In this document: positions 2,203-64,000 of the stretch, piece after piece
Layout of the letters: each line of letters opens with the position of its first letter
Position numbering within the stretch: the first letter of the stretch is position 1
Source of the DNA: Escherichia phage vB_EcoS_VAH1
Length of the DNA stretch: 64,000 bases
Sequence record: MK373792.1
Strand: one strand, 5' to 3'
The notes under the pieces: model-generated
Database searches by the model: none
Told to the model about the DNA's origin: nothing
The model's input: the letters and a program-made list of their open reading frames with translations, nothing else
Made by a program: the position numbers and the translations under genes

Positions 2203-2732
2203 TAACACAGGAAAGGCTAAAAGAGTTATTTGATTACTCCCCAGGAACTGGGGAGTTTACTAGAAAAGTATCTAGAGGTAATCAGAAAGCTGGTAGTATA
2301 GCTGGTTCTTTAAGAAAAGATGATTATATATGTATATGGGTAGATGGAAAGCCTTACTATGCGCATCAACTAGCTTTTCTCTATATGGAAGGTTATTTAC
2401 CTGAAGAAGTAGACCATATAAACCGTATACGAAGTGATAATCGTTGGGTTAACCTTAAAGATTCTTCTCACCAAGAGAATAGCAGGAATAAAGCAGCTAA
2501 AAGTAAATCAGGGTATATAGGAGTTAGTTGGAATAAACAAAGGCAAAAATGGCAAGTTCAACTAAGAGATACCAATAAAAAGAAAATATTCGGTGGATAT
2601 TTTGAGTACCAGAATTTAGAATCAGCCGTAGATAAGATTAATAAGCTACGATTACAATTTCATGGGGAAAATGCTATTCAAGAAATATTCGACCCGTCTA
2701 ATTATCCTGCATTAGAGGAGATAAATTCATGA
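2199..2732 (+). CDS. HNH homing endonuclease (MITQERLKEL family, AP2-like C-terminal domain)
   Basis: YAHQLAFLYMEGY...VDHINRIRSDNRWVNL HNH motif. Paralog of 9787..10263 and 42044..42541. ATGA start/stop overlap with the upstream gene. Confidence 0.8.
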   Translation: MITQERLKELFDYSPGTGEFTRKVSRGNQKAGSIAGSLRKDDYICIWVDGKPYYAHQLAFLYMEGYLPEEVDHINRIRSDNRWVNLKDSSHQENSRNKAAKSKSGYIGVSWNKQRQKWQVQLRDTNKKKIFGGYFEYQNLESAVDKINKLRLQFHGENAIQEIFDPSNYPALEEINS

Positions 2733-3619
2733 GTAGAATAACAGAATTACTTGATCTTAAGGGAATTGAGTATAAAGATACTGGTGGAGATATTTTAATC
2801 TGTTGCTTAAATCCAGATCATGATGATAAACACCCAAGTTTGCGTATTGATCCTGAAACCGGGATTATGCACTGCTTGAGTTGCGGGTTTGGCAAAGGTA
2901 TACCTAGTATTTATCATTATTTTAATGAGACTCAATATAGACAATCTCCAAGACTATCCCAAGTACGTAAAAAGATTTCAGAGATTAGAAATGGATCTAC
3001 GAATCTTGCAATCCCAGAATCTGCCTGCCTTTTCGAAGGTGATTTCCGAGGTATCAGTTCTAAGACCTTGAAGAAATATTTTGCTTTCCAACATCAAGAG
3101 AACTGGGAAGGCAGAATTGTATTCCCAATCACAGATGCTGTTGGACGCAATATCCTATTTTTGGGTCGTTCTATAAACAGTTCTGCCCCTCCTAAATACT
3201 TAGTAAAACCAAAACAAGTTTCACCACCGATTTTCCCTGTACGATATAATACTCCAGTTCTTGTTCTAGTTGAAGGTATCTTTGATATGCTGAACCTAGA
3301 GGATAATGGTATAGACTATGCTTCTTGCTGCTTTGGTACACATCAGTTTACCTCGGATAACATTGCAGATAAGTTCAGTCCGTATATTATTGCTGGTGTT
3401 AAAGTTGTTGTTATCTTACTAGATAATGATGCTTCTGGTAATAAAGCCGCACAAGCACTGGCTAAGCTAATTCGTACAAAAACGCGTTTAACACCTGTAG
3501 TTGCTAACTTTCTTCTGCCTGAAGGTAAAGACCCAGGTGACTTAAATAAAGAAGAAATTGATATGTTAGCAAAACGTATTGAAATTTTAGTTGCTGAATC
3601 GCTTAAAGATTTGGTATAA
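2729..3619 (+). CDS. DNA primase (zinc ribbon plus Toprim)
   Basis: CCLNPDHDDKHPSLRID...CLSCGFGKG zinc-binding motif; Toprim-like VLVEGIFDM and ILLDNDASGNKAA. Confidence 0.8.
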   Translation: MSRITELLDLKGIEYKDTGGDILICCLNPDHDDKHPSLRIDPETGIMHCLSCGFGKGIPSIYHYFNETQYRQSPRLSQVRKKISEIRNGSTNLAIPESACLFEGDFRGISSKTLKKYFAFQHQENWEGRIVFPITDAVGRNILFLGRSINSSAPPKYLVKPKQVSPPIFPVRYNTPVLVLVEGIFDMLNLEDNGIDYASCCFGTHQFTSDNIADKFSPYIIAGVKVVVILLDNDASGNKAAQALAKLIRTKTRLTPVVANFLLPEGKDPGDLNKEEIDMLAKRIEILVAESLKDLV

Positions 3620-3645
3620 TAGTCCTAAATAACTGAGGAGCTACT

Positions 3646-3975
3646 ATGGAATATGTATATATTTATGCGGATGTTCCAGTGTATGATAGTATAACACACA
3701 AAGAGGTTAAACTAGAGCGGTTTACAACACTGGAGTCCCTTAATAAACGAAAGAATTTCCATTTATTTGGTGATCCTAAATTACCTGCATCTTATATTTA
3801 CTTTAAAGTAAAAGATACAGGTCAAGAGGTATACCTAACATATGATTGGGCTGTTGTAGAAAATACTGAGCAATCTATGAAAGCGCTAGATGCTTTTCTG
3901 CGTATAGATGAAGAATTTCGGGTACTAGAAAAGCAGCGCAATGAAATGCGTAAATTACTACATACCTATAAATAG
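3646..3975 (+). CDS. hypothetical protein
   Basis: ORF with RBS GAGGAG upstream, embedded in a plus-strand operon. Confidence 0.5.
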   Translation: MEYVYIYADVPVYDSITHKEVKLERFTTLESLNKRKNFHLFGDPKLPASYIYFKVKDTGQEVYLTYDWAVVENTEQSMKALDAFLRIDEEFRVLEKQRNEMRKLLHTYK

Positions 3976-3978
3976 TAT

Positions 3979-4007
3979 TTGCTATTATCCCAATATTTTG
4001 ATATAAT
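3979..4007 (+). promoter_or_regulatory. sigma70-type early promoter upstream of the DNA polymerase gene
   Basis: TTGCTA (3979-3984), 17-bp spacer, TATAAT (4002-4007), in an AT-rich context. Confidence 0.5.
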
Positions 4008-4068
4008 ATATTGGTAAGTTAGAGAAGAAACACTGAAGTTATACTTACTTACCAAGAGGAGATTAAAT

Positions 4069-6636
4069 TTGAAAATCGCAGTAGTTGATAAAGCTCTAAA
4101 TAACACTCGTTATGATAAACATTTCCAGCTATACGGCGAGGAAGTTGATGTATTCCATATGTGTAACGAGAAGTTGTCCGGTCGTTTGCTCAAAAAGCAT
4201 ATTACTATAGGGACTCCGGAAAACCCATTTGACCCGAATGATTATGATTTTGTTATACTGGTAGGTGCCGAACCTTTCCTGTACTTTGCAGGTAAGAAAG
4301 GTATTGGTGATTATACTGGTAAACGTGTAGAGTATAATGGATATGCTAACTGGATTGCGAGTATCAGCCCAGCCCAGTTACACTTTAAACCTGAAATGAA
4401 ACCAGTTTTTGATGCAACAGTAGAGAATATCCACGATATTATCAATGGTCGTGAGAAGATTGCAAAAGCTGGTGATTACCGTCCTATTACTGACCCTGAT
4501 GAGGCAGAAGAATATATCAAGATGGTGTATAATATGGTTATCGGACCTGTCGCATTCGACTCCGAAACCTCAGCACTATACTGTCGAGATGGTTATCTAC
4601 TTGGTGTTTCTATATCTCACCAAGAGTATCAGGGTGTATATATCGATTCTGATTGCCTCACAGAGGTTGCAGTATATTACCTCCAGAAAATCCTGGATAG
4701 TGAAAACCACACTATTGTTTTTCACAACTTGAAGTTTGATATGCACTTTTATAAGTACCATCTGGGACTTACTTTTGATAAAGCACATAAAGAACGCAGG
4801 CTCCATGATACCATGTTGCAGCACTATGTTCTAGATGAACGTCGTGGTACTCATGGCTTGAAATCTCTAGCAATGAAGTATACCGATATGGGTGACTATG
4901 ACTTTGAACTAGATAAGTTCAAAGATGATTACTGCAAAGCACATAAAATCAAGAAAGAAGATTTCACCTATGATTTAATTCCGTTTGATATTATGTGGCC
5001 TTACGCTGCGAAAGATACAGATGCCACCATACGTTTGCACAACTTCTTCTTACCAAAGATTGAGAAGAATGAAAAACTTTGCAGTCTGTATTACGATGTT
5101 TTGATGCCTGGTTGCGTATTCTTGCAACGTGTTGAAGATCGTGGTGTACCTATTTCTATCGATCGTTTAAAAGAAGCTCAGTATCAGTTAACCCATAATC
5201 TGAATAAAGCCCGTGAGAAACTGTACACTTATCCAGAAGTTAAACAGCTAGAACAAGATCAGAATGAAGCGTTTAACCCGAACTCTGTTAAGCAGCTGCG
5301 CGTTCTTCTGTTTGATTACGTTGGCTTAACTCCAACAGGTAAACTGACGGATACTGGAGCAGATTCTACAGATGCAGAAGCTCTGAATGAGCTGGCTACG
5401 CAGCATCCAATTGCTAAAACTCTACTAGAGATTCGTAAGCTGACTAAGCTGATCTCTACTTATGTTGAGAAGATTCTACTGAGTATTGATGCAGATGGTT
5501 GCATTCGTACTGGTTTCCATGAACATATGACTACTTCTGGTCGTCTGAGTTCTTCTGGTAAACTGAACCTGCAACAGCTACCTCGTGATGAATCTATTAT
5601 CAAGGGTTGTGTAGTTGCACCACCTGGATACCGTGTAATCGCGTGGGACTTAACAACTGCGGAAGTTTACTATGCTGCTGTTCTATCTGGGGATAGAAAT
5701 ATGCAACAGGTATTTATCAACATGAGAAATGAACCCGATAAATACCCAGACTTCCACTCTAACATCGCCCACATGGTATTTAAATTGCAATGTGAACCTC
5801 GTGATGTTAAGAAGCTGTTCCCAGCTCTACGTCAGGCAGCTAAGGCAATTACCTTTGGTATTTTGTATGGTTCTGGCCCGGCTAAAGTAGCACATTCTGT
5901 TAACGAAGCATTGCTCGAACAAGCAGCCAAAACTGGGGAACCGTTTGTTGAATGTACTGTTGCAGATGCTAAAGAGTACATTGAGACTTACTTTGGTCAA
6001 TTCCCACAGCTTAAGCGTTGGATTGATAAGTGCCACGATCAGATCAAGAATCATGGATTTATCTATAGTCACTTTGGTCGTAAACGTCGTCTGCATAATA
6101 TCCATTCCGAAGACCGTGGTGTTCAGGGTGAAGAAATTCGTTCTGGATTTAACGCAATCATTCAGTCTGCTTCTTCTGATAGTCTCCTTTTAGGTGCTGT
6201 AGATGCAGATAATGAGATCATTTCTCTTGGTTTAGAACAAGAGATGAAGATTGTTATGTTGGTTCATGACTCCGTAGTTGCTATTGTTCGTGAGGATTTG
6301 ATCGACCAATACAATGAAATCCTGATTCGTAATATTCAGAAAGACCGTGGTATCAGTATTCCTGGCTGTCCGATTGGTATTGATTCAGATTCTGAAGCCG
6401 GGGGTTCTCGTGACTATTCTTGTGGTAAGATGAAGAAACAGCACCCATCAATTGCTTGTATTGATGATGATGAATATACTCGTTACGTTAAAGAAATGCT
6501 ACTTGATGCAGATTTCGAGTATAAGAAACTAGCTGCGATGGATAAAGAGCATCCAGACCACAGCAAGTACAAGGATGATAAGTTTATTGCTGTATGTAAA
6601 GATCTGGATAACGTGAAAAGGATTCTCGGTGCTTAA
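4069..6636 (+). CDS. DNA polymerase, family A, with 3'-5' exonuclease domain (T5 DNA polymerase-like)
   Basis: 855 aa; TTG start after RBS AAGAGGA. Exonuclease motif FDSETSAL; polymerase motif B RQAAKAITFGILYGSG; motif C LVHDSV. Confidence 0.95.
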   Translation: MKIAVVDKALNNTRYDKHFQLYGEEVDVFHMCNEKLSGRLLKKHITIGTPENPFDPNDYDFVILVGAEPFLYFAGKKGIGDYTGKRVEYNGYANWIASISPAQLHFKPEMKPVFDATVENIHDIINGREKIAKAGDYRPITDPDEAEEYIKMVYNMVIGPVAFDSETSALYCRDGYLLGVSISHQEYQGVYIDSDCLTEVAVYYLQKILDSENHTIVFHNLKFDMHFYKYHLGLTFDKAHKERRLHDTMLQHYVLDERRGTHGLKSLAMKYTDMGDYDFELDKFKDDYCKAHKIKKEDFTYDLIPFDIMWPYAAKDTDATIRLHNFFLPKIEKNEKLCSLYYDVLMPGCVFLQRVEDRGVPISIDRLKEAQYQLTHNLNKAREKLYTYPEVKQLEQDQNEAFNPNSVKQLRVLLFDYVGLTPTGKLTDTGADSTDAEALNELATQHPIAKTLLEIRKLTKLISTYVEKILLSIDADGCIRTGFHEHMTTSGRLSSSGKLNLQQLPRDESIIKGCVVAPPGYRVIAWDLTTAEVYYAAVLSGDRNMQQVFINMRNEPDKYPDFHSNIAHMVFKLQCEPRDVKKLFPALRQAAKAITFGILYGSGPAKVAHSVNEALLEQAAKTGEPFVECTVADAKEYIETYFGQFPQLKRWIDKCHDQIKNHGFIYSHFGRKRRLHNIHSEDRGVQGEEIRSGFNAIIQSASSDSLLLGAVDADNEIISLGLEQEMKIVMLVHDSVVAIVREDLIDQYNEILIRNIQKDRGISIPGCPIGIDSDSEAGGSRDYSCGKMKKQHPSIACIDDDEYTRYVKEMLLDADFEYKKLAAMDKEHPDHSKYKDDKFIAVCKDLDNVKRILGA

Positions 6637-7126
6637 TTTCAAATTGCCCGTATATGCTTTACGGGCATTTGTATCAATTGAGCAAGAAGGTGATTATTCC
6701 GTAATTACAACAAGATATAATAAATATGTGCTAGATAACAGGAAGTTGCCTGGTACTTTTTCTCAACGTAGGCTTATTCTATTTGAGAAACGGAAAGAAT
6801 TACCATACAAGCTCTATCCTATTAGAGGTAGAATATCAATGTTGTCTCAATTAGTTGGGTCAAAGCGTAGCCAATTTATAGATTCTGATGGAAATCTTAT
6901 TAACTGGAAGAAAACTACGTTCTATGATGTTGTCACCTCTAAAGTTTTGCATTCAGCTAGAATTTATAACGGAAAATACCAATGCTATGTAGCTAAAGTT
7001 CCATATCCATTTGTATTATCCTATGTTCCAGCTTATATAAGCTATATTCTGGTAAATAATAGCCCTGTTATTTATCAAGTCCATCAAGAGGAGCCTGAAA
7101 TTCCTAGACTTAGAATAAAATTATGA
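6629..7126 (+). CDS. hypothetical protein
   Basis: ORF overlapping the polymerase stop; no recognisable motifs. Confidence 0.4.
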   Translation: MLNFKLPVYALRAFVSIEQEGDYSVITTRYNKYVLDNRKLPGTFSQRRLILFEKRKELPYKLYPIRGRISMLSQLVGSKRSQFIDSDGNLINWKKTTFYDVVTSKVLHSARIYNGKYQCYVAKVPYPFVLSYVPAYISYILVNNSPVIYQVHQEEPEIPRLRIKL

Positions 7127-7275
7127 AGGTTGTTATATCTAATAAAGCCTATTTCAAGCCCGATGATGAACTTTGGGATTATTGTAGTAAGCAAACCACT
7201 TATCACATAGAGACAATGACTAGTAAATACCCTATTATGTATAAGAATAGTGGTGTTGTTGCCCAAAGAGATTAA
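7123..7275 (+). CDS. N-terminal fragment of SF2 DNA helicase (frame 1 of 3)
   Basis: ATG at 7123; 50 codons ending just inside the start of the next helicase ORF in another frame. Confidence 0.4.
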   Translation: MKVVISNKAYFKPDDELWDYCSKQTTYHIETMTSKYPIMYKNSGVVAQRD

Positions 7276-7702
7276 GTGGATTCCTATTACGCGTCTGGAC
7301 TTATTAGATGCTAAAGGAATAAAATACGAATTAGTCGATAAACGCACATTAGCTCCAGTAGATATACCAAAACCTGAGTTCAAGCTGCGTGAAGAAGACC
7401 AGCTCCCAATATATAAAGAGTGTGATGATACCTGTATTATTAATGGTAAGCCTGGATTTGGTAAAACTATCCTAGCCCTTGCACTTGCGTATAAATTTGG
7501 CCAGAAAACTTTGGTAATCTGTACAAATACATCCATACGTGAAATGTGGGCGGCAGAAGTTCGTAAATGGTTTGGGTTTGAACCAGGCATCATAGGTTCT
7601 GGGAAGTACAATATTGATCCACCAATTGTAGTCAGCAATATTCAAACAGTAAATAAACATGCGAATAATCTTTCTAAAGTATTCGGTACTGTTTATAGTT
7701 GA
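7250..7702 (+). CDS. SF2 ATP-dependent DNA helicase, Walker A segment (frameshifted gene)
   Basis: Walker A GKPGFGKT. Ends ...KVFGTVYS* immediately before the helicase motif II in the next frame. Confidence 0.7.
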   Translation: MVLLPKEIKWIPITRLDLLDAKGIKYELVDKRTLAPVDIPKPEFKLREEDQLPIYKECDDTCIINGKPGFGKTILALALAYKFGQKTLVICTNTSIREMWAAEVRKWFGFEPGIIGSGKYNIDPPIVVSNIQTVNKHANNLSKVFGTVYS

Positions 7703-8477
7703 TGAAGTTCACCATTGTGTGGCTACAACTTTCACTAATTTCCTAGAAATATCATGTGCTCGCTATAAAATTGGACTATCCGGTACACTAAAACGAAAAG
7801 ATGGTTTACAAGTTATGTTCAAAGATTTCTTTGGATATAAGATATTTAGCCCGCCGGTTAATAATACTGTTGCACCTACAATCCATAGGTACTCCGTGCC
7901 TGTTGAGCTATCAGGAAACCAAAACGTGCCGTGGGCATTACGTGCTAACGATGTGTATAATCATCCTGAATATCGAGAGACTATTATAAACCTAGCACAT
8001 TTATATGTGAATATGGGGCATAAAGTACTCATTGTAAGTGATAGAACAGAGTTAATCCAAACAGTACTAGAAGCTCTTACGCAGCGGGGTGTTACAACAT
8101 ATGAAATTATAGGGGCAACCCACTTAGATGACCGATTAAAAATTCAGGAAGATATAGCAAAAGGTGGGCCTTGTGTACTTGCAGCAGCTCAAAGTATCTT
8201 CTCTGAAGGTATTTCTCTTAATGAGCTATCTTGTTTAATAATGGGAAGCCTCATTAATAATGAATCTCTCATTGAACAGCTTGCAGGCCGTGTTCAACGT
8301 ATTGTCGATGGTAAACTCGACCCTATTGTTGTAGATCTAATTATGAAAGGTGGCACTGGACTAAGACAGGCTTCTGGACGTATGGCAGTATATCGTAACA
8401 ACGGGTGGAAAACTATTACTATGACCCCGGAGAAAGCAGTTCAATTAGCTAAAATTGCATTTGGCAACAGCTCATAA
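7659..8477 (+). CDS. SF2 ATP-dependent DNA helicase, DExH and C-terminal domain (frameshifted gene)
   Basis: LFIVDEVHH (motif II), LSGTLKRKDG, and C-terminal helicase domain with QLAGRVQR. Confidence 0.7.
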   Translation: MRIIFLKYSVLFIVDEVHHCVATTFTNFLEISCARYKIGLSGTLKRKDGLQVMFKDFFGYKIFSPPVNNTVAPTIHRYSVPVELSGNQNVPWALRANDVYNHPEYRETIINLAHLYVNMGHKVLIVSDRTELIQTVLEALTQRGVTTYEIIGATHLDDRLKIQEDIAKGGPCVLAAAQSIFSEGISLNELSCLIMGSLINNESLIEQLAGRVQRIVDGKLDPIVVDLIMKGGTGLRQASGRMAVYRNNGWKTITMTPEKAVQLAKIAFGNSS

Positions 8478-8489: not shown

Positions 8490-8562
8490 ATATACATAAA
8501 TTTGAGAGAGAGAAAGTTTCGGATTGATAAGAAAGTCCGAAGCAGAAAAATAAAAATTTTAG

Positions 8563-9786: not shown

Positions 9787-10263
9787 ATGATTACACAAGA
9801 GCGATTAAAAGAGCTGTTAGATTATAATCCTGAGACTGGAGTATTTACCTGGAAAGTATCTCGTGGTAGAGTTTCAAAAGGATCTGTAGCTGGAACAGCA
9901 GTATCAGTAGGGAATAGGTACACCCGCTGGGAGATTCGAGTTGAAGGAAAAAGATATAAGGCGCATCAGTTAGCATTTCTATACGTTCATGGTTATATTC
10001 CACCTGAGATTGATCATGAAGATAGGAATCCATTGAATAATGCAATACTTAACCTAATAGACTCTTCAAAGTCTCGTAATCAATTAAATAAGAATAAAAA
10101 CTTCGGTAAAGAAACACCAAAAGGAGTCTTTGTAAAAGCCTCTACTGGAAGATACTTCGTACAGATTCAAGGAAAGCACTACGGCTACTTTGATGACGTA
10201 GAACAGGCCAGAACTGTTGCTAATGAGGTATATGATAGGTTGTTAAATGAGAATACTGTTTAG
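9787..10263 (+). CDS. HNH homing endonuclease (MITQERLKEL family)
   Basis: N-terminus MITQERLKELLDYNPETGVFTWKVSRG; HNH motif YKAHQLAFLYVHGYIPPEIDHEDRNPLNN. Confidence 0.8.
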   Translation: MITQERLKELLDYNPETGVFTWKVSRGRVSKGSVAGTAVSVGNRYTRWEIRVEGKRYKAHQLAFLYVHGYIPPEIDHEDRNPLNNAILNLIDSSKSRNQLNKNKNFGKETPKGVFVKASTGRYFVQIQGKHYGYFDDVEQARTVANEVYDRLLNENTV

Positions 10264-18168: not shown

Positions 18169-18590
18169 TATTGAGTTACTCCATCACTAATATAAACTTT
18201 GCCTTCCATAATACGGAAAGAACTAGCAGCACTACCAACAGCTGTTCTAGTAATAATTACATCATAGTATCCAGCTAATCTCTGTCTAGGATTATATCTA
18301 TCCCTTTCTTTAGATGCTTTGGAAGCAATAGTTGTTACGGCACTAACAGGTAGACTTATAGATGCTACACCTTGTGTAGCATCTACAATAGATGTAGTAA
18401 AAGATGCTAAAGTTTCAGCTCCATCTTCTAAACTACTTTTAATACTTCCTCTAAGAGAGAAGCCAGTAAGATCTACTGGCTTAGATGTAGCAGGATAAAC
18501 ACTATCATCTACATCCATAAATTGCATAAGTAAACCATAAGGTACGTTTTCGTCTACTACTAAATCAATAACTCTATTTTCTGTACTCAT
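18168..18590 (-). CDS. tail collar-like protein
   Basis: 140-aa ORF between the fibre and baseplate genes; assignment by position only. Confidence 0.45.
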
Positions 18591-18595: not shown

Positions 18596-20698
18596 TTACC
18601 TTATATGGATATACCCGTTTTGCAGGTCTATCTTCATTTTGTAAGATCCCTCTGGATTAGAGGATAGTGCTGCTGCACGATCATATATAATATTTACACC
18701 AATTTGTGATAAGAAAGCATTATTAGCAACAATTTTACTAGCAGTTACCGTACCATTAACTATCATATCACCATGTAAAACCATTGCAGGGCTAGCCCAT
18801 GCTGAACCATTCCACTGCCTAGTAAACGCTGTTCCTGGTGCTCCACTTTTATACTCGGTTAATACATCATATTTAACAGGGCCAGTACCAAAGTTAGATG
18901 TAAAGAATGAATTAGCTTGTGAATCATTCCATGCTGTTAAATTAGCGATAGCAAGAGAATACATTCCAGGACCACGTTGTCCTGTATCTCCTGGCCTGCC
19001 ATCGGCACCTGGTTTACCGTCTGCTCCAGGCCTACCATCAACACCTTCTGTACCGCTCCATTGAACCACGTCTGACCAACTAGTTCCAGATACTAACTGA
19101 TTAGTAACAGGGTCTAAAGTACCTGTAGAACAGTAAATATTTTGAGTATTAGATGTTCTATTGGGTGGAGTCTTTGACCAACCTGAAGGTGGGTATGCAG
19201 GGCTTGTAGGTTTAGCAGGTAGTGAGGTTCCTAGAATATAGATAAATACTGTTTGCTTGCCCTGTATACCTGTCTGTATATCAATATCACCATTTGGTGT
19301 ACCAATTACAACCCCGCTAGAAATCCTTAATGTATCTCCATCATAACGTATATACTGAGTAGCATTACCAATATCTAGTTTTGGTTTAGCAGTAGCATTA
19401 TCCATGCCCATCCAGATACCAGATTTTGTATCGCCCCAAGTTTTACCCTGAGTATAGATTGCTGGGTTATCTTGACCGGTTAAATTAGTCATGACAAAGT
19501 TAGCAGCGTTAATAGTTTTAGTTATTACACTTCCATCAACGTTAACTATCTTTTTAATAGGGTCGAAAGATATTGGTGCTTTTCCTTCAGCATCTAGAAG
19601 ACCTATATTAATAGCACCGGTGGAGGCATCTATTAGGAAGGTTTGTTTCCAGGTAGATCCATCTTTAATTTTACCCTTAATGTACGCATAATTTACTTCG
19701 ATACCAGTTTCATTAACAAAACTATTGTCTAACGGTGTGCTCTCATTTAATATAAATGTCTGTACTGCGGAATCAGTAACATCTTGAGCGCCTGGTCCCC
19801 AGGCAATAGATGACACTTTAAATTTATGCTCTACTTTCCATGGGAATGATATAATTGTTGCCGACTGAGCAGCCCCCACGTTGATTTTTTGTGCTTTAGT
19901 CCATCCAGTTCTTGCAAACTCTGCCGAATCTATATAAGATAGAACGAACTCACGAACATTAGCACCTGCACCTCTATTCCAATCCCATTGTACACGCAAG
20001 TCATAGCGTTCTTTACCATCTGCAATACGCGCTGCTTTAAATTCAATATTAATAGGTGCAGTAGGGGGAACAAAATTATACTTAACTTCAAAAACAGTGG
20101 GATACTCATAGTATCCAGATGAATCAATAGTAACACCGTCTGGTAGGCTTATTTGACCAGAAATTCTTACTTTATAGAACCCGATTGGCACACCACCAAA
20201 CATAATAGTTGGCATTAGTGCACCAACGTAATATTTAACCCATGGATTATTGGCATTAGAATTATTTTTTAATTCTATAGTGCAATAATCGGCCTCCCCT
20301 GTAGTATCTATATAAACTATTGGTGCTCCAACACCAACATCTACTAGTTCTGACTCGCATCTAGCACCCATGATTTTGGGTGCTGATTTCATTTTAAAGG
20401 TTTGCTTATCAGATAGGTTAATTCCTATCTGTGCATTAAGGAGTTCAGAGTCTATTATGGAATCATAAAATGCACCCTGAACTTCATAAGTTGTTGTAGG
20501 TTTTAGATTATTAATAGTTACAGAGAAAGTATCAACACCCGTGAAGTCTCTACGAGTAATATTACTACCTTCCTTTAGCCAAAAAGATCTGCCTATAACG
20601 TCATAATCTGAGTAAATAGAATGCTGGATATACGCCAACGTATACCCAGTTAAGACGCTATTTAGGACCATTTTAGCTGGTGCATTATTTGAAATCAT
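18596..20698 (-). CDS. baseplate/central fibre protein with short collagen-like segment
   Basis: 700 aa; G-X-Y run [27 protein letters not shown]; position in the tail module. Confidence 0.6.
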
Positions 20699-37327: not shown

Positions 37328-37840
37328 TTATTTACCGCGGGAAATAGAGTAAATTCCATAGCGCAGCGCATCACAAAGGTGAGAGTTAGCATCATGACGT
37401 GGTTTTTCACGTGATAATTTCTCTTCACCTTCTTGGAAATCCCACTTATAGTTCTGCAATGCATGGATTAGTGAGGAACATGAAGCATCTACAATAATCT
37501 TGCCCTGCTGGAATAGCGCTTGCAAGCATGCTAGACCATCTAGGACAGATTTTTTAGCTGGAGCTGATGCAATTTCGTGCTCGTAAGCTAAGTCCTGGCG
37601 GAACTGAGCGGCGGCAGAGTCAACAAAAATACGATCAACTTTATAACGATCTATACAGTGCTGAATATAAGCAGCATGCTGAGCTGTAGTTTTTTCAGCC
37701 TGCTGGTATTCTTCTAACACGTAGTAGGTATCCGTATCGTAATGATATTTAATAGTAAGAACTGCTGTAGGATCACGATAACCAACGTCAATACCAAGCA
37801 ACGTTTCGAATGCTTCATCATCTTTAAAGAAGTGACGCAT
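37328..37840 (-). CDS. terminase large subunit, C-terminal nuclease domain (frame open up to about 37941)
   Basis: Terminase nuclease region. The frame continues upstream as NYFRQEYEADFSVFEGQIFDTFNAIDHV... to a stop adjacent to the frameshift site. Confidence 0.8.
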   Translation of the reverse strand: MRHFFKDDEAFETLLGIDVGYRDPTAVLTIKYHYDTDTYYVLEEYQQAEKTTAQHAAYIQHCIDRYKVDRIFVDSAAAQFRQDLAYEHEIASAPAKKSVLDGLACLQALFQQGKIIVDASCSSLIHALQNYKWDFQEGEEKLSREKPRHDANSHLCDALRYGIYSISRGK

Positions 37841-38643
37841 ACCTTTGAGATCTTTAACATGATCAATAGCATTAAAGGTATCAAAGATCTGGCCTTCGAA
37901 TACAGAGAAGTCAGCCTCGTATTCTTGGCGGAAGTAGTTTTACTAACTGTACGACGTGCTTCCTCAATGTCATTCAGGTCAGCACGTGGGTTATCACGAT
38001 ATGTACCATGAATAGATACCCAGTTAGGCAACGTATCATCAAATCCGTAGGCGTAAAATTCTTTAAACCAGTTACCCCCACGAGGGGTGGAAATAAATAG
38101 AGCTTTAGAATTAGGTTTATCTAGAGTAGGACGCAGCTGAACCCTGAAGGCATCACCACCCACATCGGAAATTGCCGCCTCGTCAAAGATGATAAAATCA
38201 TATGAACGTCCAACTGCGGAGTCAGCCTGAGCCGCGGAAGCTAGTTTAAATAGAGAACCATTAGCTAACTCAATCTCTTTATCTTTAGCGTTTTCACGTT
38301 CGGTTTGTAGGCCATACTTCTTAATAAGACCACGAATCTGAGACCATCCGATATTGGCCAGTGAGTAGTTAGGGGCAACTACTAGCACCTTCACATTAGG
38401 TTCCAGCAATTTTAGGAACCCAAGTGTATACGCTATAAAAGATTTACCTACACGGCGTGATACACACGCCGTTACAAAACGATGTCTAGGGTCTTCTAGC
38501 GCATTGATAATTGCTATTTGAGGGCCGTTAGGTGTAATACCCTCTTGTGCTAGTATTCCGGAAACGGGTAAACGAAAGAAACGCTTATCTATTCCGAAAT
38601 CAATAACATCTACTGTATTAACATAAGGTCTTGATACTTCCAT
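37714..38643 (-). CDS. terminase large subunit, N-terminal ATPase domain (frameshifted gene)
   Basis: Walker A-like SRRVGKS and Walker B YDFIIFDEAA. After ...DIEEARRTVSK the frame turns into low-complexity garbage. Confidence 0.85.
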   Translation of the reverse strand: MEVSRPYVNTVDVIDFGIDKRFFRLPVSGILAQEGITPNGPQIAIINALEDPRHRFVTACVSRRVGKSFIAYTLGFLKLLEPNVKVLVVAPNYSLANIGWSQIRGLIKKYGLQTERENAKDKEIELANGSLFKLASAAQADSAVGRSYDFIIFDEAAISDVGGDAFRVQLRPTLDKPNSKALFISTPRGGNWFKEFYAYGFDDTLPNWVSIHGTYRDNPRADLNDIEEARRTVSKTTSAKNTRLTSLYSKARSLIPLMLLIMLKISKVCVTSLKMMKHSKRCLVLTLVIVILQQFLLLNIITIRIPTTC

Positions 38644-39135: not shown

Positions 39136-40665
39136 TTAGGTAAGGCGTTGAACTGTTACTCTTAATCTAGGTAGGAAAACTGCGCTACCCAAACTCACGT
39201 GCATAACTACTCCTAACTCTACATTTCCATTTCCTAGATTTTTAACGGTATATATAAAACTGTTTCTACTAAGAGCATTGTTAGGTGTATATCTAAAAGC
39301 AGATGTAGTATGAAAAGGTACTAGATAACCCACAGGTAGCGTTAAAATCTGGTGGAATATTGCATCTCCATTACTATAACTATGCGCTTTTCTTCCTTGT
39401 ACTTGAAATACACCATTATTCCATGTATTAGCTGGAACACCCGCACAATTAAGATTACCTGATATAACTTCAGTAGTAAGAATTACGGTAGCATTTCCGC
39501 CTGGTATACCTAGCCCAATAGTTGATAAACCAACGTATCTATCCCCAGTTCCTGGATAGTGGGGTGTAATATCATCTCCCATATAAGAACTACCTACATT
39601 TCCACTAAAAAGTCGAAGTGGAACTGCTGATGGTCCCCAAACAATCCCATGTTCATTACCAATAGTATTATTATTTGAGTTTACATACCATTGTTTACCG
39701 GCCCCAAATTTATAAATACTAATTTGAGATTTAGCCCCTCCGTAATCTACAGGAGACCACAACCCTCCATTACTAGACCCTACAAGTTCACACCTTGCAG
39801 TGGTATCCCCAAAAACCCCAGTATACGCTGCGTTATTCCCTATATACTCCATATCAGGACGGTAACCTAGGTTACCAAAAGCATTCTGATTTATAAATTT
39901 ATACCCGGTATTAGGGAGACTTACCCCTTTAATTATGAAATTAGAAGGAGATATAAGAATATCAGAACCAGTAAAGGGATTGCCTGAAATACTCATACCT
40001 CCATTCGAGTACCTTAAATTAAGAACATACCAAATAACCTTAGTAGGAGTTATATTATACCAGTCCTGTATTACCGTAGGATTGCCAGACTGATTAGCCA
40101 AATTAGTAGTAGATCCCCTACAAACAAATCTGTTCCCACCGTCGTGGTACATAGTATTTACACTACCTGGGAGCCCTTGCCTAACCCCACCATACCCACG
40201 TATATTAGAATTACAAACATAAAACCAATCATGCCCTCTATGCGCTGCTCCTAGAGGTGACATCCATCCGGGATCCCAATAGTACGGGTTATTCCCATCT
40301 ACAGGTACTGTACTACTGTTAGTAGGAAACCCTAATTGTGCAAAAGCTTCTGCAACAGTAACACCTACAGGAGCTCCCGCACCGGGCCTAACTATACCAT
40401 GGTAGGTACTATGTAATGTAGTACCCCCTGTGCCACTCCTAGATATAGATTCTTCATGCCCTAGAGAGGGATTATAATTATAAGTTCCAGATGCTAGACT
40501 ATTACCAAAGGCAAATCCACTGGTTTGAGAAACACTAGCAAAAGATCTAAAGGGATCTGCCTGGGTGGCAACTATAGTTTGACCAACTTTACTCTGAGTA
40601 CCATTAAGAAAAGCTCTGTGAGTACCATTTATCTCAATAGCAGTTAGTAACTCTACCTGGGTCAT
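39136..40665 (-). CDS. receptor-binding tail protein (T5 pb5-like), C-terminal part
   Basis: 509-aa Gly/Asn/Thr/Ser-rich ORF next to a divergent llp-like lipoprotein gene; overlaps the preceding 85-aa ORF by 32 nt in another frame. Confidence 0.55.
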
Positions 40666-40891
40666 TAGATTTAATATTTATTATGTCAGAGGGCATTTGA
40701 CATACAAAAAACCCATTCCCGGCATTACCTAATGCAGCCTCATAAGTACCATCAACTAGGACAAATGGCATATCACTATGAAAAATACTATTGGCATTTG
40801 GACTATAGTGACGATTAATGTCACCACCAGATTCAGTATTTAAAGATAGTACGGTCTTACCATCGCTATATTTTCCAGCGAAAAAACCCAT
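40634..40891 (-). CDS. receptor-binding tail protein, N-terminal 85-aa fragment
   Basis: Strong RBS AGGAGA before the ATG at 40889-40891; ends in frame conflict with 39136..40665. Confidence 0.5.
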   Translation of the reverse strand: MGFFAGKYSDGKTVLSLNTESGGDINRHYSPNANSIFHSDMPFVLVDGTYEAALGNAGNGFFVCQMPSDIINIKSNDPGRVTNCY

Positions 40892-42057: not shown

Positions 42058-42541
42058 ACCTCTACTTCCCTTAGCAGAATACCAGAAGAAATTTGATTAT
42101 GACCCTGAAACCGGTATGTTTACTTGGAATTCAGGGAGTCGTAAAGGTAAACCAGCAGGTAGTAGAAATAGTTCAGGAATATCCCTATCAATGGGTAGTA
42201 ATGGGCTATATAAGGCCCATCGGGTAGCGTATCTATACATGACAGGAGAAGACCCGGGTGAATTTCTCATTGATCACAAAGATCAAGACCCCTTCAACAA
42301 TAGGTGGAATAACTTACGTAAAGCAACAAATGCAGAGAATGGAAAAAACTCTTCGGGATGGAAGAATGAGTCTACAGGGGTTAAGGGAGTATATAAACGC
42401 GAGGAGGGAAAGTTCGAAGCAAAACTACGTGTAAATGGTAATAGAATTACCATAGGAACTTTTAAAACTCTTGAGCAGGCTGAAAAAGAACTTAGAAAAG
42501 CCAGGGAGCATTACCACGGTGAGTTTGCAAACCATAATTAA
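42044..42541 (+). CDS. HNH homing endonuclease
   Basis: PETGMFTWNSGSRKGKPAGS...YKAHRVAYLYMTGEDPGEFLIDHKDQDPFNNRWNNL; same family as 2199..2732 and 9787..10263. Confidence 0.8.
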   Translation: MANHKPLLPLAEYQKKFDYDPETGMFTWNSGSRKGKPAGSRNSSGISLSMGSNGLYKAHRVAYLYMTGEDPGEFLIDHKDQDPFNNRWNNLRKATNAENGKNSSGWKNESTGVKGVYKREEGKFEAKLRVNGNRITIGTFKTLEQAEKELRKAREHYHGEFANHN

Positions 42542-47715: not shown

Positions 47716-48234
47716 TTAATTGACAATTCCAAATTCAGCTTTTTTAGTTTCTACCCATAATAATAACTCTTGTAAATCATAACCTGATTTACTAACACTT
47801 TTGTTACTAGTAGGATCTTTAACTATAGCGCGCAAATAGTTTCTTCCGTTATTATCAACTCTAGAACCATTATAATAGATATGCTTAGGCAACTTATTAG
47901 CACGCTTATAATCTTTCTTGTTATTCATATTCTGCTTATGATCTACTAAGCGAAGATTATTAATGTTATTATTAGCACGGTTACGATCATTATGATCGAT
48001 TGTTAGATTGCTATCAATCTCACCATTAAATAATACCCATATTATTCTATGCACTGCGTATTGTTCGCCTGCTAACTTTACTCGATAGTAACCTGTGTTA
48101 CTATAATGCCCTGCAATATCACCCACCTTACTATTACCTTTCTGTACTTTCCACCTTAGAAATGATGGGGATGTTTCATCATAATAAAAGTTATCATTAG
48201 CAAGCGAATAATCTATATCTTTAAATAGACCCAT
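47716..48234 (-). CDS. HNH homing endonuclease
   Basis: YAVHRIIWVLFNGEIDSNLTIDHNDRNRANNNINNLRL HNH motif; AP2-like C-terminal domain. Confidence 0.75.
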   Translation of the reverse strand: MGLFKDIDYSLANDNFYYDETSPSFLRWKVQKGNSKVGDIAGHYSNTGYYRVKLAGEQYAVHRIIWVLFNGEIDSNLTIDHNDRNRANNNINNLRLVDHKQNMNNKKDYKRANKLPKHIYYNGSRVDNNGRNYLRAIVKDPTSNKSVSKSGYDLQELLLWVETKKAEFGIVN

Positions 48235-58096: not shown

Positions 58097-58301
58097 CTTT
58101 AAGAATATCCTCTACCATATCACAGGACTGTTGCAATTCGTCAGCAATACGTTTAATATCGGTTTTTGTTACTTTACCAACTAACATCACCAGTAACATA
58201 GAAAAGATAATAAGTGGAACTGGAATAACAAATAAAGCTACCTTAACAACATTCTTTGGCGTCCATGTGTGGTACTTGGTAACCAGTACACCAAACCACA
58301 A
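58086..58301 (-). CDS. small membrane protein
   Basis: 71 aa with a TM segment. Confidence 0.4.
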   Translation of the reverse strand: MWFGVLVTKYHTWTPKNVVKVALFVIPVPLIIFSMLLVMLVGKVTKTDIKRIADELQQSCDMVEDILKDEA

Positions 58302-58336
58302 TCAAATAAAACGCTAGAATAAACATCATCATTTTT

Positions 58337-58612
58337 TTAATCTCCGTAATTATCTGAGCACGCATCATCACTTTTTGGTAATTTTGTATTCCCAGCTATT
58401 GCTTCAATATTGTTTAGTTTTTCTTTTAGAATATCTGAGCGTCTCTGTGCTAGTTCAATATCTTGTTCTTGTTCTATTAAGCGGCAGTGAAGTCCATCAT
58501 TAGTAATAAGCATACTTTCCATGTTTTTTCGTGCGTTTACAATCCCAATAACTCCACCAATCGCTACTAGTGTAGTAAGAACTAGTAACCCAATAAGAAT
58601 TTCTGTAATCAT
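58337..58612 (-). CDS. small membrane protein
   Basis: 91 aa; N-terminal TM helix. Confidence 0.45.
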   Translation of the reverse strand: MITEILIGLLVLTTLVAIGGVIGIVNARKNMESMLITNDGLHCRLIEQEQDIELAQRRSDILKEKLNNIEAIAGNTKLPKSDDACSDNYGD

Positions 58613-59148
58613 TTATTTAATTCCTCTAAAGTAGGTAAGGGTTTTGTATGATCAAAAGTTTCTATAACAGCGTTAGGCCCATGTAGTTCTAAACGTAGTT
58701 CATTAGCTCTTTGAACTGCCAACTCTAAATCTAGATACCTAAAGTAGCCTCCGTGTACTGTAATGCTTTCGGCGCTTCTGGCCTGGACTCTCCATTGTTG
58801 TCGATCTTTTTTCCAGGTAACTCCTAAGTATCCCCGAATTAGATTGAGCGATTCTGCTACGATTATTCTCTTGGGACGTACAATCTTTTAAATTACACCA
58901 TTATTATCTTTTCTTATATTATTTAAGTGGTGTACTAGATTTGGAATATACCCCTCCATGTACAAAAAAGCTAACCTATGGGCTGCATATCTTTTTCTAT
59001 TTATTCCAATAAATATATATAACCATCCTTATCAGGACTACCAGCAATACTACCTGCTTTACCTCGCCCTCTACTGACTTTCCTTATAAATTCGCCCGTT
59101 TCCGGGCGGTATTCAAATAGCTCTTTTAATCTTTCTTGTGTTATCATT
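58613..59148 (-). pseudogene. degenerate HNH homing endonuclease (MITQERLKEL family) with multiple frameshifts/stops
   Basis: Minus-strand translation from ATG 59146-59148 gives MITQERLKELFEYRPETGEFIRKVSRGRGKAGSIAGS... then a stop; HNH-like pieces (AHRLAFLYMEGYIPNLVHH, KDRQQWRVQ..., ...LELHGPNAV) continue in other frames. Confidence 0.6.
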
Positions 59149-59374
59149 TTTTCTTTAATTGCTTAACTTCACGCTCAAAGCTAGCCGCTCGTCGTTCTGC
59201 CACTGCTTGATGCTCCTTAGCAAAGCGTGCCTCTTGTTTTGCTAAGTTAAAGGCCATAGCGTTCTTGTTAAGAGAATCGTACATCTTCTTCATCGCCGGA
59301 ATAGACATTTTCATCAGTTGCCCCTCAAATCCTTGCATATCGAGGAGAATTGCCAGAACGTTAGCCATTTTCAT
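59144..59374 (-). CDS. hypothetical protein
   Basis: 76-aa ORF. Confidence 0.45.
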   Translation of the reverse strand: MKMANVLAILLDMQGFEGQLMKMSIPAMKKMYDSLNKNAMAFNLAKQEARFAKEHQAVAERRAASFEREVKQLKKK

Positions 59375-59471
59375 TTTTAGTCATGTTTTCCATTAGAATT
59401 TCCTCTCTCATTAATTTATGAACTTATTATACAGAATTTTAAGGCTTAAAGCAACTGAATTTTTTAATTAC

Positions 59472-59903
59472 TTACCAATCGTTAACAACACCAGAGAACT
59501 CAGAAGCAAAAACTTTTTCAAATTTTTCTGCAATTTCAGGATGATCTTTGCAGATCAGCTCAATGCATGCTTCTGGAGTCATTCCTTCATCTTCAGGATC
59601 ACCATAGTATTTATCCCAAAGATCATCGGGAATGATATGCTCTGCCAAATCTTGGAAAGAGATTAACTGATAACGTTCTGCCTCCTCAGCGATAAGAATT
59701 TCGCACAGATCTTTATCTATATCGCTACGATAATCCGCAATTAATAAGGCATTGCAAGCATGACATTCCCAGACCATCAAACGTTCAGAGATAGGATTAG
59801 ACTTATCCTGAACGTAAGACTGGAACAAGGTTCGGAAAGTTGCCTTAACTTGTTCAAACTTATCTGCTGCTGCGAAAACTAGAGCTTTATCAACTTTGTT
59901 CAT
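59472..59903 (-). CDS. hypothetical acidic protein
   Basis: 143-aa ORF. Confidence 0.5.
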   Translation of the reverse strand: MNKVDKALVFAAADKFEQVKATFRTLFQSYVQDKSNPISERLMVWECHACNALLIADYRSDIDKDLCEILIAEEAERYQLISFQDLAEHIIPDDLWDKYYGDPEDEGMTPEACIELICKDHPEIAEKFEKVFASEFSGVVNDW

Positions 59904-60070
59904 TTTGATTCCTTCTCATCAATTTATAAAGTAATTATACAGAAACTTAAGCATTTTAGCAAATAAAACTTTCAATTAAAATGCCTAATCCTGTGCCAAT
60001 AGCAATACAAATGATTATAAGTATTGCTATCGCTTGTATGCTTCGTTTAATAATAGCCTCAGCTATATAC

Positions 60071-60665
60071 TTAGACATTTATATCGCCACGTAATACAGC
60101 AGCTACATCTTCCCCTATTTGTAATACTTCGCCAGTAGTACAATTAACTACTCTATCATAGCTAGTAAACTTACCAGACACAATATCCTCTAGTGGAATT
60201 GGAGTTTTACTCATTTCAAATGAGACATTAATATAACGTGGATCACGTAAAGAAGTAGTATGTACATGTCCGTGAATATTTAGTTTTTGCCACGAAGTTC
60301 ATTAGGGTGCAAAGGGCAGTGAGATAGCCAAAACTTTTTGCCACCTCCAGTCTGTTTGCCTAGAGCTTGAATATCGTCATAAACTTCCGCTAAGTCCCTA
60401 ATACTCAGTCCTTGACGCTCCGCATCATGATTACCCATAATGAGTTGATTAGGGACATTGGATAAACCGACTTTAATTTGGCCAGACCTTCACGACCTAC
60501 TGCAATATCTCCTAGCAAAATAAGTTTTGTTCGTTTACCAATATGCTTGGATAAAGTATCTAGAATATACTCATCGTGCTCTTTCATGTTCTTAAACCAC
60601 GGACGGAAACGTAGTGCTCCGGGGTGGTCTAAGTGCAAGTCTGACCAGAATTTAACCTTCATCAC
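60071..60665 (-). CDS. calcineurin-like metallophosphoesterase, interrupted by two apparent frameshifts
   Basis: Frame 1 (60405..60665) has SDLHLDH...LLGDIAVGREG; frame 2 has MGNHDAERQGL; frame 3 has IHGHVHTTS... running to the stop at 60071-60073. Confidence 0.65.
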
Positions 60666-60682
60666 TTACTCCTTTTTTTGTA

Positions 60683-60952
60683 TTAAATTATATCAACCCA
60701 GGTAGTTAATACTCTAGTTTTAAACTCCTCGGGAGTCTCTCCTTCCTTAAGGTCTACCTCATTAAGGTAGGTAGTAAGCCTTGTTTCTATCTCTATTTCA
60801 GCAGGAGAATTAAAACAAAAATTGACTGCTATTCCAGAATATATTACTCCGGTATCTCCTTTGACGAAAGCATTAACTAATGCTCTCCAACGAAGGGCAT
60901 CAATACGCATTGCTCGTAATTCTTCTTGTACTTCTTTCATTCTATCATTCAT
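60683..60952 (-). CDS. hypothetical protein
   Basis: 89-aa ORF. Confidence 0.45.
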   Translation of the reverse strand: MNDRMKEVQEELRAMRIDALRWRALVNAFVKGDTGVIYSGIAVNFCFNSPAEIEIETRLTTYLNEVDLKEGETPEEFKTRVLTTWVDII

Positions 60953-61022
60953 TAAAGAATCCTCTGTACACCACAGCTATCTTCGAAGCGTGGTAAATGT
61001 TGTGATTTTCCCAGTTTCATCA

Positions 61023-61826
61023 TTAACTTGCGCAACCGTCAACTGCCCGTTGAAAAACACCGCCAGTATCAAGATAAACACGGTTCTGGTATAAAATCGG
61101 GTAAGGTACTCCAGTATGCCCGTGAAACACGAAATCTACCCCTTTAACTTCTGGCACTTCTACCATGTATTTCTCTTTAAACCCTGCATAACGCTGGAAA
61201 TATGAGTGTTCTTCACCATTTTTAGATAAGTGAAAACCTATTTCTTGGATTACATCTCGATCCCATAAGTATGGTTCAACATGGTATCCAGGATGGTCAT
61301 GTGTGGGTCTTCCTTAGATGCTTCTACTTGTGCAATAAGGTTATCCCATACTGGGGTTTCTACTTCGTTACCACATTCTTTGTACGTAAAAGGTACACCA
61401 CCATGAACAACACCATACTTTTTACCACGATGCAATACAGTCAGAAATACTGGCATTTTTTCAGCCATGTCTTCAGCAATATTTTTAATGGTATCTGCAT
61501 CTAGTTCATTCATAGCCCACATACCACCATTATACATCCAGTTAGCCCAATCTCCCACAATCATAAATTGGTCATGATTACCTCGGACACTGATAAAGCG
61601 TGGATTATACAGGAATTTGGAAAACTTGTAGGTTCTGCGTGCCTCGATCAATTAAATCTCCCACGCATACAACACAATCTTTCTTGCCGTTATAGCCAGC
61701 TAATTGTAGTGCATCTTCTAGTAAATCGTTACATCCATGAATATCACCAACGAAAAACAAGTTGGCGTCATCCGGCACTACTAGAGTTTTATGTACATTA
61801 AATTCTTTTTTCATAATTATTCCCAA
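61023..61826 (-). CDS. Ser/Thr protein phosphatase (PPP family, lambda-PPase-like), interrupted by two apparent frameshifts
   Basis: GDIHGC and GDLIDRG in 61605..61826; GNHD and VVHGG in 61250..61651; FVFHGHT in a third frame ending at about 61023. Confidence 0.7.
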
Positions 61827-62155
61827 ATAACAGTTAAAATAGTTGTGCCATAATCATTAGATAGCTGGAGAGTATAACCCTCTTTATAGAGGGCTTTTAT
61901 AGCTTCATAACTAATTTCATCACGATTAAACTGTACAAAACCCCCAATCTCCACAGAAGAAACTATTCTCTTTTAACATACTTATATGGTTTCTTTCTGC
62001 TCTTGAGAAGAGCAGCTCTATTAACTCTAGCTAAATGTTTTGCTTGCTCTGCTAACATTTAATCCTCCTATCAATCTATATAAATAGTATACCAAAATTT
62101 TTAGCAAAAAGCAAGTAAAATAAAAGCCTGATCCGCTAAGATCAGGCTTGGTTTA

Positions 62156-62455
62156 TTAATCCTCTGGATTATCGTCTAGGAAATTTTTAATAGCTTCGTG
62201 CATAGTTTCTTTACGAAGCTGACGTCCAACCAAAATATGATTAGCTTCTACTCGACCATTAGGTAAGCGATCCGCTAGAACTACTACAGGAACAGCTCTT
62301 ACTCCGAACTTCTGCATTAATTCTGTATTATCAGTCTCTTTGTGGACTTCCAAATTATAGTCATTGACTACTTTATCAAATACTACTGGCTCGAAAAGAG
62401 CACAAGGACGACACGTGGAACCTTTTAATAAATAAATAACTTTGCTCATATACAC
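62156..62455 (-). CDS. glutaredoxin/thioredoxin-fold protein (NrdH-like)
   Basis: CxxC motif CRPC near the N-terminus; about 95 aa. Confidence 0.6.
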   Translation of the reverse strand: MYMSKVIYLLKGSTCRPCALFEPVVFDKVVNDYNLEVHKETDNTELMQKFGVRAVPVVVLADRLPNGRVEANHILVGRQLRKETMHEAIKNFLDDNPED

Positions 62456-62560
62456 TCCTATTTTACTTGTTAAGCTCTTCTAAATCTGGTATATATCCAA
62501 GAAACTCCTCAATTAAAGCGTACTCCCCAGCAATCTCCTGTCTAGACTTATTCGCTAAGT

Positions 62561-62996
62561 CTACTGCAGAGCTAAGTCTTCATAATTGAAGATTCCTTTC
62601 ATACGTTTTCGGCCTGTTTCATCCGTAATTTGAACTCTCCATTTCTGCCTATCTTTAGCCCACATAACATTTGCATATCCGGATTTGGATTTTATGCTTT
62701 TATTACGACAATTTTGTGGTTTAGATGCAGAACGTAAATTTTTCCATCGGTTATTTTGTGGATTTCTATCTATGTGATCCACAAATTCAGGTATATATCC
62801 TTCCATATATATAGGCCCATCTATGGGCTCCCTGCCTCTCCCCTTCCCACCATTATCATTATGTAATCATTGTTGTACAGGGTTCCAGCTTCCATTCCCC
62901 TCTTTACATACTGATTATTACCATCTATCTTCCAGGTAAACACACCCGTTTCCGGGTTATAATCTAGTAATTCCTTTAATCTTTCTTGTGTTATCA
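62561..62996 (-). CDS. HNH homing endonuclease (MITQERLKEL family), apparently frameshifted
   Basis: GTG start at 62994-62996 gives VITQERLKELLDYNPETGVFTWKIDG... then a stop; the C-terminal HNH part YMEGYIPEFVDHIDRNPQNNRWKNL... is in another frame (62561..62806). Confidence 0.6.
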
Positions 62997-63003
62997 CAAT
63001 TTA

Positions 63004-63210
63004 TTAATGGCCTCCAAGAAGTTTTTTCATGCACCTAACAGTTGCAGTGCTGAGATCTAGAGTAGTTCCTAAACATTCTGTTAATGCTGCCTGGTAAGGC
63101 GCTTTTAAACGCCCTTCAGGGACTTCTACCTTTTTGTAGGTTTTATTCTTTACTTTATCCAACATAGCTTCAAGAACATTGAGAGGCAATTTCGCACCCT
63201 CAATATTCAC
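63004..63210 (-). CDS. hypothetical small protein
   Basis: 68-aa ORF with GTG/ATG start overlapping the upstream stop by 11 nt. Confidence 0.4.
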   Translation of the reverse strand: MNIEGAKLPLNVLEAMLDKVKNKTYKKVEVPEGRLKAPYQAALTECLGTTLDLSTATVRCMKKLLGGH

Positions 63211-63397
63211 ACCACATTTCGGTCAGCATGTTATTAAGATCAATACGAGTAAGTTTCTTGCCTTTAGACATAGTAGTTCCTGCCCTCTTCTCAAGTTTTT
63301 TACGCTCTGGTGAATCGAGGTCACGTAATGCGATGTTCAACTCATATGGAGCCATGTTATAATGTTCCGCCATTTGAGTGTAGAAACGATCAGACAT
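63200..63397 (-). CDS. hypothetical small protein
   Basis: 65-aa ORF. Confidence 0.4.
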   Translation of the reverse strand: MSDRFYTQMAEHYNMAPYELNIALRDLDSPERKKLEKRAGTTMSKGKKLTRIDLNNMLTEMWCEY

Positions 63398-63472
63398 AAT
63401 ATATACCTCTCTTAACTAATTTATGTATATATTATATAATAACTAGGGCTAAAAGTCAACTACTTTTTTATC

Positions 63473-63889
63473 TTAATCTACTACATGTATAAATCTTTTT
63501 CTAACTAGATACATAGTTATTGGGTAAATTGAGTACATAAGTATCGGGGAGAAAAGGGTGAAATACGCTGTAACTCCCCCAGCTAACATCAAAGGTATTA
63601 ATGCTAGAGTAAGGGCCATAAGAATCATACCGAATGAAACAGCCAAAGCTATGGATATAGGATTCTCTAGTTCCATCCATAACCAACAATATTTCGTATC
63701 TCTATGGCAATTGCATTTACAAACGCCGAATGAACCCATAATTATATACTCTAGTCCGTGAATAACCTTTATTAATAAGCTATTTCGGGTAGTTAATGCA
63801 ATGATAGTAAAGACTATCATTAAAACGAATACTACTAGACTTATTTTCCAGATACCTAGCAGCATCATAGTGAATAGTTCTGCAAACAT
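63473..63889 (-). CDS. integral membrane protein
   Basis: 138 aa with about four hydrophobic helices. Confidence 0.5.
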   Translation of the reverse strand: MFAELFTMMLLGIWKISLVVFVLMIVFTIIALTTRNSLLIKVIHGLEYIIMGSFGVCKCNCHRDTKYCWLWMELENPISIALAVSFGMILMALTLALIPLMLAGGVTAYFTLFSPILMYSIYPITMYLVRKRFIHVVD

Positions 63890-64000
63890 GGCTTTCTCCT
63901 ATCTTCAAAAATTTATTAAAGCCCCCTTTGCCTAAAAAGGCGGGAATATTCCCGCCTAAGTTATTAATTAAACTAGTTCGACATGACCGCCATCATAGGT

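Follow-up and report, generated by a model that had tools for sequence, protein, structure and literature searches.

In the deposited genome of Escherichia phage vB_EcoS_VAH1 (MK373792.1) one known helicase gene is annotated as three short proteins, and this split very probably results from indel errors in the assembly. The gene occupies 7123..8477 on the plus strand of the 64,000-nucleotide stretch that we analysed (hereafter the window) and, judged by its sequence, is the orthologue of phage T5 D10, a 450-aa UvsW/XPB-like SF2 branch-migration helicase. D10 helicase is well studied, and the locus itself is ordinary.

Identity and layout of the gene

The DNA of the region is 97% identical to T5 and to >400 Tequintavirus or Epseptimavirus records. 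T5 (NC_005859, AY587007) and Salmonella phage FGS029 each have one undivided CDS of 1353 nt here, D10 (450 aa; T5.124, 'putative ATP-dependent helicase'); in VAH1 the gene measures 1355 nt and retains 97% nucleotide identity to T5 D10. Its neighbours also match those in T5, with pol and T5.123 upstream and T5.125 and D11 downstream. A tblastn search of the window with T5 D10 recovered the whole protein, residues 1-450, as three collinear segments of 97-99% identity: residues 1-48 in frame 1, 45-190 in frame 2 and 191-450 in frame 3. Chance does not account for this: across the full length of the gene, DNA identity to T5 is 97%, and the two sequences differ in length only by two 1-base insertions.

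The ORF listing bears out the three plus-strand ORFs in three frames described in the first-pass annotation. Fragment 1 (7123..7275, frame 1, 50 aa; QBQ80745.1, VAH1_00138) consists of D10 residues 1-46 followed by 4 out-of-frame residues, and it ends at a premature TAA at 7273..7275 (plus strand). Fragment 2 (7250..7702, plus strand, frame 2, 150 aa; QBQ80746.1) carries D10 residues about 47-190, includes Walker A without Walker B, and ends at a premature TGA at 7700..7702 (plus strand). Fragment 3 (7659..8477, plus strand, frame 0, 272 aa; QBQ80747.1, 'putative helicase') opens with 12 out-of-frame residues and continues with D10 residues 191-450. By exact-sequence look-up QBQ80745.1 and QBQ80747.1 match the 50-aa and 272-aa ORFs exactly, and QBQ80746.1 was deposited at 149 aa, one residue below the 150-aa ORF of fragment 2. 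Each of the three fragment proteins was found on one contig only, that of vB_EcoS_VAH1 (124,537 bp), and exact look-up in Logan/SRA-derived assemblies recovered neither the fragments nor a repaired VAH1 D10.

The SF2 motifs are distributed over the fragments as the first-pass annotation had proposed, with Walker A in 7250..7702 and the DExH and C-terminal domain in 7659..8477, and they run in canonical order across the junctions. Walker A/motif I (GKPGFGKT, residues 108-115) is encoded at 7445..7468 in fragment 2, while Walker B/motif II (DEVH, residues 193-196) is encoded at 7701..7712 and motif VI (QLAGRVQR, residues 385-392, with the arginine finger R389) at 8277..8300, both in fragment 3 and all on the plus strand. 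Motif III (SGT) occupies residues 219-221 of the repaired protein. Pfam assigns to fragment 2 the N-terminal portion of ResIII, which includes the P-loop, and to fragment 3 the C-terminal end of ResIII together with Helicase_C, so that the domains follow the same canonical order as motifs I, II, III and VI. Among solved structures, archaeal XPB/Rad25 and T4 UvsW (PDB 2OCA, 2FWR, 6P4F; E 1e-9 to 1e-17) come closest in sequence, in agreement with what has been reported for T5 D10, and they have the SF2 two-RecA-domain architecture in common with D10.

Purified T5 D10 shows DNA-dependent ATPase activity and, by branch migration, unwinds DNA with three- and four-way branches; an R389N substitution abolishes its ATPase activity (PMC5180179). 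T5 D10 (YP_006952.1; Wong, Sayers & Sanders 2016, PMC5180179) has the same position and the same motifs I, II, III and VI with R389 as the VAH1 gene; it differs in being one ORF where the deposited VAH1 sequence has three. These ATPase and branch-migration activities have been shown biochemically for T5 D10 only (PMC5180179) and are predicted for VAH1 D10. In the literature D10 is regarded as a functional homologue of T4 UvsW in branch migration and, like UvsW, as a trigger of Retron-Eco11 (PMC5180179, PMC12746101). The kinship of D10 to UvsW/XPB is distant (20-30% identity), and D10 unwinding is reported to depend partly on sequence, unlike that of UvsW (PMC5180179).

Two single-base insertions

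Length differences within D10 were read from a three-way DNA alignment and confirmed from the blastn gap listing. Relative to the 1353-nt ORF of T5, Kenya-K16 and FGS029, the only length differences in VAH1 D10 are two 1-base insertions. The first turns the CC of the relatives into CCC at 7262..7264 (plus strand; context GTTG[C]CCAAAG) and shifts the frame after residue 46. The second turns TT into TTT at 7692..7694 (plus strand; context ACTG[T]TTATAG); here the frame changes past residue 189, three codons short of Walker B. Because each insertion is +1, the frames follow one another in the order 1, 2, 0, and the deposited gene is broken into three ORFs instead of forming a single uninterrupted reading frame. 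These results support the earlier proposal of one helicase gene cut by two indels, which had suggested alignment to T5-like helicases as a way to place them; both fall within the intervals named there, 7250-7275 and 7660-7700.

Removal of both extra bases yields a 450-aa ORF that is identical to T5 D10 at 446/450 residues (4 differences), with all motifs including R389 intact. Residues 1-46 are identical between VAH1 and T5, and the segments downstream of both breaks contain 39 synonymous and 4 non-synonymous codon changes. With such a ratio the repaired frame still looks fully constrained.

Neither insertion was found in any other record searched. Using a 61-mer centred on each site, +C at 7262-7264 was present in 0/412 phage records and +T at 7692-7694 in 0/209, the best match in each case always being 60/61 with a 1-base gap. 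In IMG/VR, 30-32-mers containing the insertion matched 0 contigs, and the uninterrupted versions were present on 17 contigs for the first site and 26 for the second. Both indels are located in short repeat runs and are unique to the VAH1 record, as would be expected of artefacts.

A split gene of this kind could in principle still give full-length D10 through two programmed +1 ribosomal frameshifts. A stop codon does follow 3-4 codons past each insertion (GAT TAA G at 7270-7276 and AGT TGA T at 7697-7703), which is formally a prfB-type +1 geometry and resembles prfB-type sites in having the stop codon just 3' of each shift point. However, in AT-rich DNA a shifted frame can be expected to meet a stop early, and the VAH1 junctions differ from prfB-type sites in everything else that we compared. 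The P-site tRNA cannot re-pair in the +1 frame at either junction (GAU to AUU, AGU to GUU), and inspection of 7255-7280 and 7685-7705 revealed no upstream Shine-Dalgarno-like stimulator and no AGGAGG-like element. Functional recoding sites are conserved, yet these shift sites are unique to one record among >400 relatives, and similar breaks occur in many unrelated genes of the same record. We rejected a prfB-like programmed +1 frameshift on the grounds of conservation and of the slippery codon and stimulator alike, and we regard recoding as very doubtful.

It is scarcely credible that the three ORFs are independent small genes encoding the subunits of a split helicase, even though the deposited annotation of MK373792 does present three separate proteins. 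No Shine-Dalgarno sequence precedes the GTG at 7250 or the ATG at 7659, so fragments 2 and 3 lack a ribosome-binding site for re-initiation, and fragment 3 begins with residues that are out of frame. The second break falls inside RecA-like domain 1 and parts Walker A from Walker B within one nucleotide-binding fold. We therefore rejected re-initiation as separate genes. Homologues with separate small genes, which the first-pass annotation had named as the observation that would speak against a single gene, did not appear: T5, Kenya-K16, FGS029 and >400 others have one 1353-nt ORF, and no homologue has the three-ORF arrangement. The few D10 homologues that are split break elsewhere, inside Walker A, and do so by an intron-like insert and not by frameshifts.

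The split homologues are those of Salmonella phages phA11, phC11 and Kenya-K44, in which the same D10 gene is also annotated in pieces (112 aa + 340 aa). There the split is caused by a 1007-nt insert inside the Walker A codons (..CCG GGT / insert ..G / TTT GGT AAA ACT; an example lies at 2501-4869 of one such sequence). The insert is present in only 3 phage records and on at least 24 independent metagenome or Logan contigs. Within it, a 238-aa ORF with a weak TnsA-like endonuclease match is flanked by two partial Rfam Intron_gpI matches (38.5 and 26.8 bits, both under the gathering threshold), and these matches suggest that D10 there harbours a group I intron encoding a homing endonuclease. 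VAH1 has no such insert. An intron or mobile-element split was rejected for VAH1 because its D10 aligns to T5 D10 without any insert, leaving nothing that could correspond to a group I intron.

Indels elsewhere in the record

The same type of defect was found at other places in the window. We searched for frame switches by tblastn of the annotated CDSs of T5, Kenya-K16, ESCO40 and NBEco001 against the window; as a control, the same test applied to T5 against Kenya-K16 found a frame switch in 0/38 and 1/34 genes. The large terminase gene terL (37328..38643, minus strand) has a 1-base deletion that reduces A5 to A4 on the sense strand at about 37937-37941, and the VAH1 TerL was deposited truncated at 309 aa (QBQ80776.1). 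Addition of one A gives a 438-aa protein that is 100% identical to T5 TerL and is present on 251 contigs. Over the full 61-mer the terL deletion was common to 0/102 records. The gene for the pb5-like receptor-binding tail protein (39136..40891, minus strand; 95-96% identity to ESCO40) has a 2-base deletion, TATA to TA, at about 40648, and putting TA back restores a 585-aa ORF.

Several early genes at 58.6-63.4 kb each contain one to four frame switches. Those broken include the HNH endonuclease, phosphoesterase (T5.034) and NinI-like phosphatase (T5.035) genes and the homologues of T5.036 and T5.038. We considered whether the frame switches at 58-63 kb are real lineage differences from T5, and rejected this because they persist against NBEco001, the closest relative across this region (92.5% identity), in identical sequence context. 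The interval 58300-63950 is dense in 1-2-base slippage-type indels, examples being those at 58831, 58902, 59020, 59371, 60284, 60459, 60464, 60673, 60689, 60982, 61053, 61300, 61621 and 61969. An extra GA is also present at 8504-8505, in a (GA)n tract of the D10-T5.125 intergenic promoter region (T5 promoters P31A/P31B).

We then restricted the count to clean indels, defined as 1-2 bases with at least 11/12 identical bases in each flank and seen against every reference covering the site. The window holds at least 17 unique clean indels, none a multiple of three, nearly all of which lengthen or shorten a mono- or dinucleotide repeat. Insertions account for 13 of the 17. Indels that are mostly insertions and sit in repeats are characteristic of consensus sequence from PacBio CLR data. 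Coding sequence, which makes up a fraction of 0.85 of the window, contains 14 of the 17 unique indels, a distribution that shows no depletion (binomial p = 0.73) and indicates that selection has not filtered the VAH1 indels. Real mutations in a propagating phage would be expected to be strongly depleted from essential coding sequence, and the observed spread thus fits error. Collectively, the same class of indel as in D10 occurs elsewhere in the record, indispensable genes included and with no coding depletion, as is expected of an artefact.

These indels can be set against what is reported of the phage itself. The phage (MK373792) is described as coming from budgie droppings and as having been plaque-purified, CsCl-purified and imaged by electron microscopy (PMC6563267). 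On this account VAH1 is an infectious phage. A plaque-forming siphovirus needs both a large terminase and a receptor-binding protein, and the terL and receptor-binding protein indels consequently cannot represent the functional genome. Since these two genes are broken in a plaque-forming phage, the D10 indels of the same type are read as error too. As to whether the D10 insertions are mutations or sequencing errors, the evidence across the window favours error.

Some observations count against this conclusion. Sequencing was by PacBio RSII/HGAP3 or MiSeq/SPAdes with annotation by Prokka, and a supplementary table gives VAH1 coverage as 850.5x (PMC6563267). At a reported depth of ~850x, residual consensus indels are unexpected for either platform. 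The indels are also clustered, which counts against uniform error: two fall in one 1.35-kb gene and a third lies ~800 nt downstream of the second D10 insertion, at 8504, so that three unique indels occur within 1.25 kb. Over the window the indels cluster at 7.2-8.5 kb, 37.9-40.6 kb and 58.3-63.9 kb, which suggests local assembly or consensus problems instead of uniform error.

Loss of D10 as an alternative

The high reported coverage (850x, PMC6563267) speaks for the alternative that the insertions are real and that D10 is a recently inactivated pseudogene whose loss may have been tolerated or even selected, for example as escape from the D10-sensing Retron-Eco11. Once the first D10 frameshift is present a second one downstream would be neutral. 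Retron-Eco11 is triggered directly by D10 and by T4 UvsW, and T4 escapes the retron by a frameshift that truncates UvsW (PMC12746101). In T5, by contrast, 5/5 retron escapers had missense mutations, all located in the C-terminal RecA domain, and none had a truncation (PMC12746101); indirectly, these missense-only escapers suggest that T5 cannot afford a D10 null. We found no direct published test of D10-null lethality. Conditional-lethal mutants originally served to define the T5 'D' genes, and on that basis D10 would be essential.

The VAH1 sequence argues further against loss. D10 has no sign of relaxed constraint in its codon changes (39 synonymous to 4 non-synonymous), either insertion is common to none of >400 relatives, and in the relatives examined D10 is an intact 450-aa ORF or is interrupted only by an intron-like insert. 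Furthermore, the equivalent indels in terL and the receptor-binding protein gene cannot be real in a plaque-forming phage, and D10 loss explains neither of them. We therefore consider a recently inactivated D10 unlikely. It appears quite unlikely that the insertions are genuine in the VAH1 population and that the phage propagates without functional D10, the gene being dispensable on its host or lost under a helicase-sensing defence (type III-A3 retron).

Other features of the window

Between about 41300 and 54700 the window passes from late genes and the lpp region to the terminal-repeat genes (among them dmp, A1 and A2), which lie at about 42.6-53 kb in single copy and are followed directly by homologues of the early genes from T5.019 on. 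This segment reads like a circularised or concatemer junction, unlike the linear map of T5 with a repeat at each end.

VAH1 has one 140-aa ORF at 18171-18590 (minus strand), as does Kenya-K16 at 20056-20480 (K129), whereas T5 NC_005859 has two ORFs there in different frames, T5.135 and T5.136 (collar protein for L-shaped fibre attachment). The T5.135/T5.136 split may reflect an error in the T5 reference record, or an oddity of it. HNH homing-endonuclease genes are located at 2199-2729, 9787-10263, 42092-42529 and 47719-48234, in positions that vary relative to T5; one HNH gene lies between D11 and D12, and it is present in FGS029 and missing from T5. These HNH gene differences are typical of mobile-element variation in T5-like phages.

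Discussion

Taken together, the evidence points to assembly error as the source of the D10 split. The phage would carry an intact D10, a 450-aa SF2 helicase with two RecA-like domains, which like T4 UvsW would drive ATP-dependent branch migration and fork remodelling in recombination-dependent replication. The deposited assembly would then have a false extra base in each of two short homopolymer runs (CCC for CC and TTT for TT), and the annotation pipeline would have called three fragments as a result. We infer that both D10 indels are absent from the physical phage DNA. The VAH1 indels resemble homopolymer and short-repeat consensus errors known to produce split-gene annotations, being 1-2 bases long, unique to one record, blind to coding sequence and present in indispensable genes. 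They differ from typical records of this kind in that the reported coverage of VAH1 is high (850x, PMC6563267).

The split itself carries little biological weight, as D10 has been characterised and the break is best explained by a flaw in one GenBank record, MK373792. That record would gain from re-sequencing or polishing. QBQ80745-QBQ80747 and the truncated TerL QBQ80776 are already in UniProt and nr, where they may distort surveys of core genes, pangenomes and defence triggers. If the insertions were real after all, VAH1 would be the first natural D10-null Tequintavirus, and it would inform the question of whether D10, the Retron-Eco11 trigger, is dispensable for T5-like phages.
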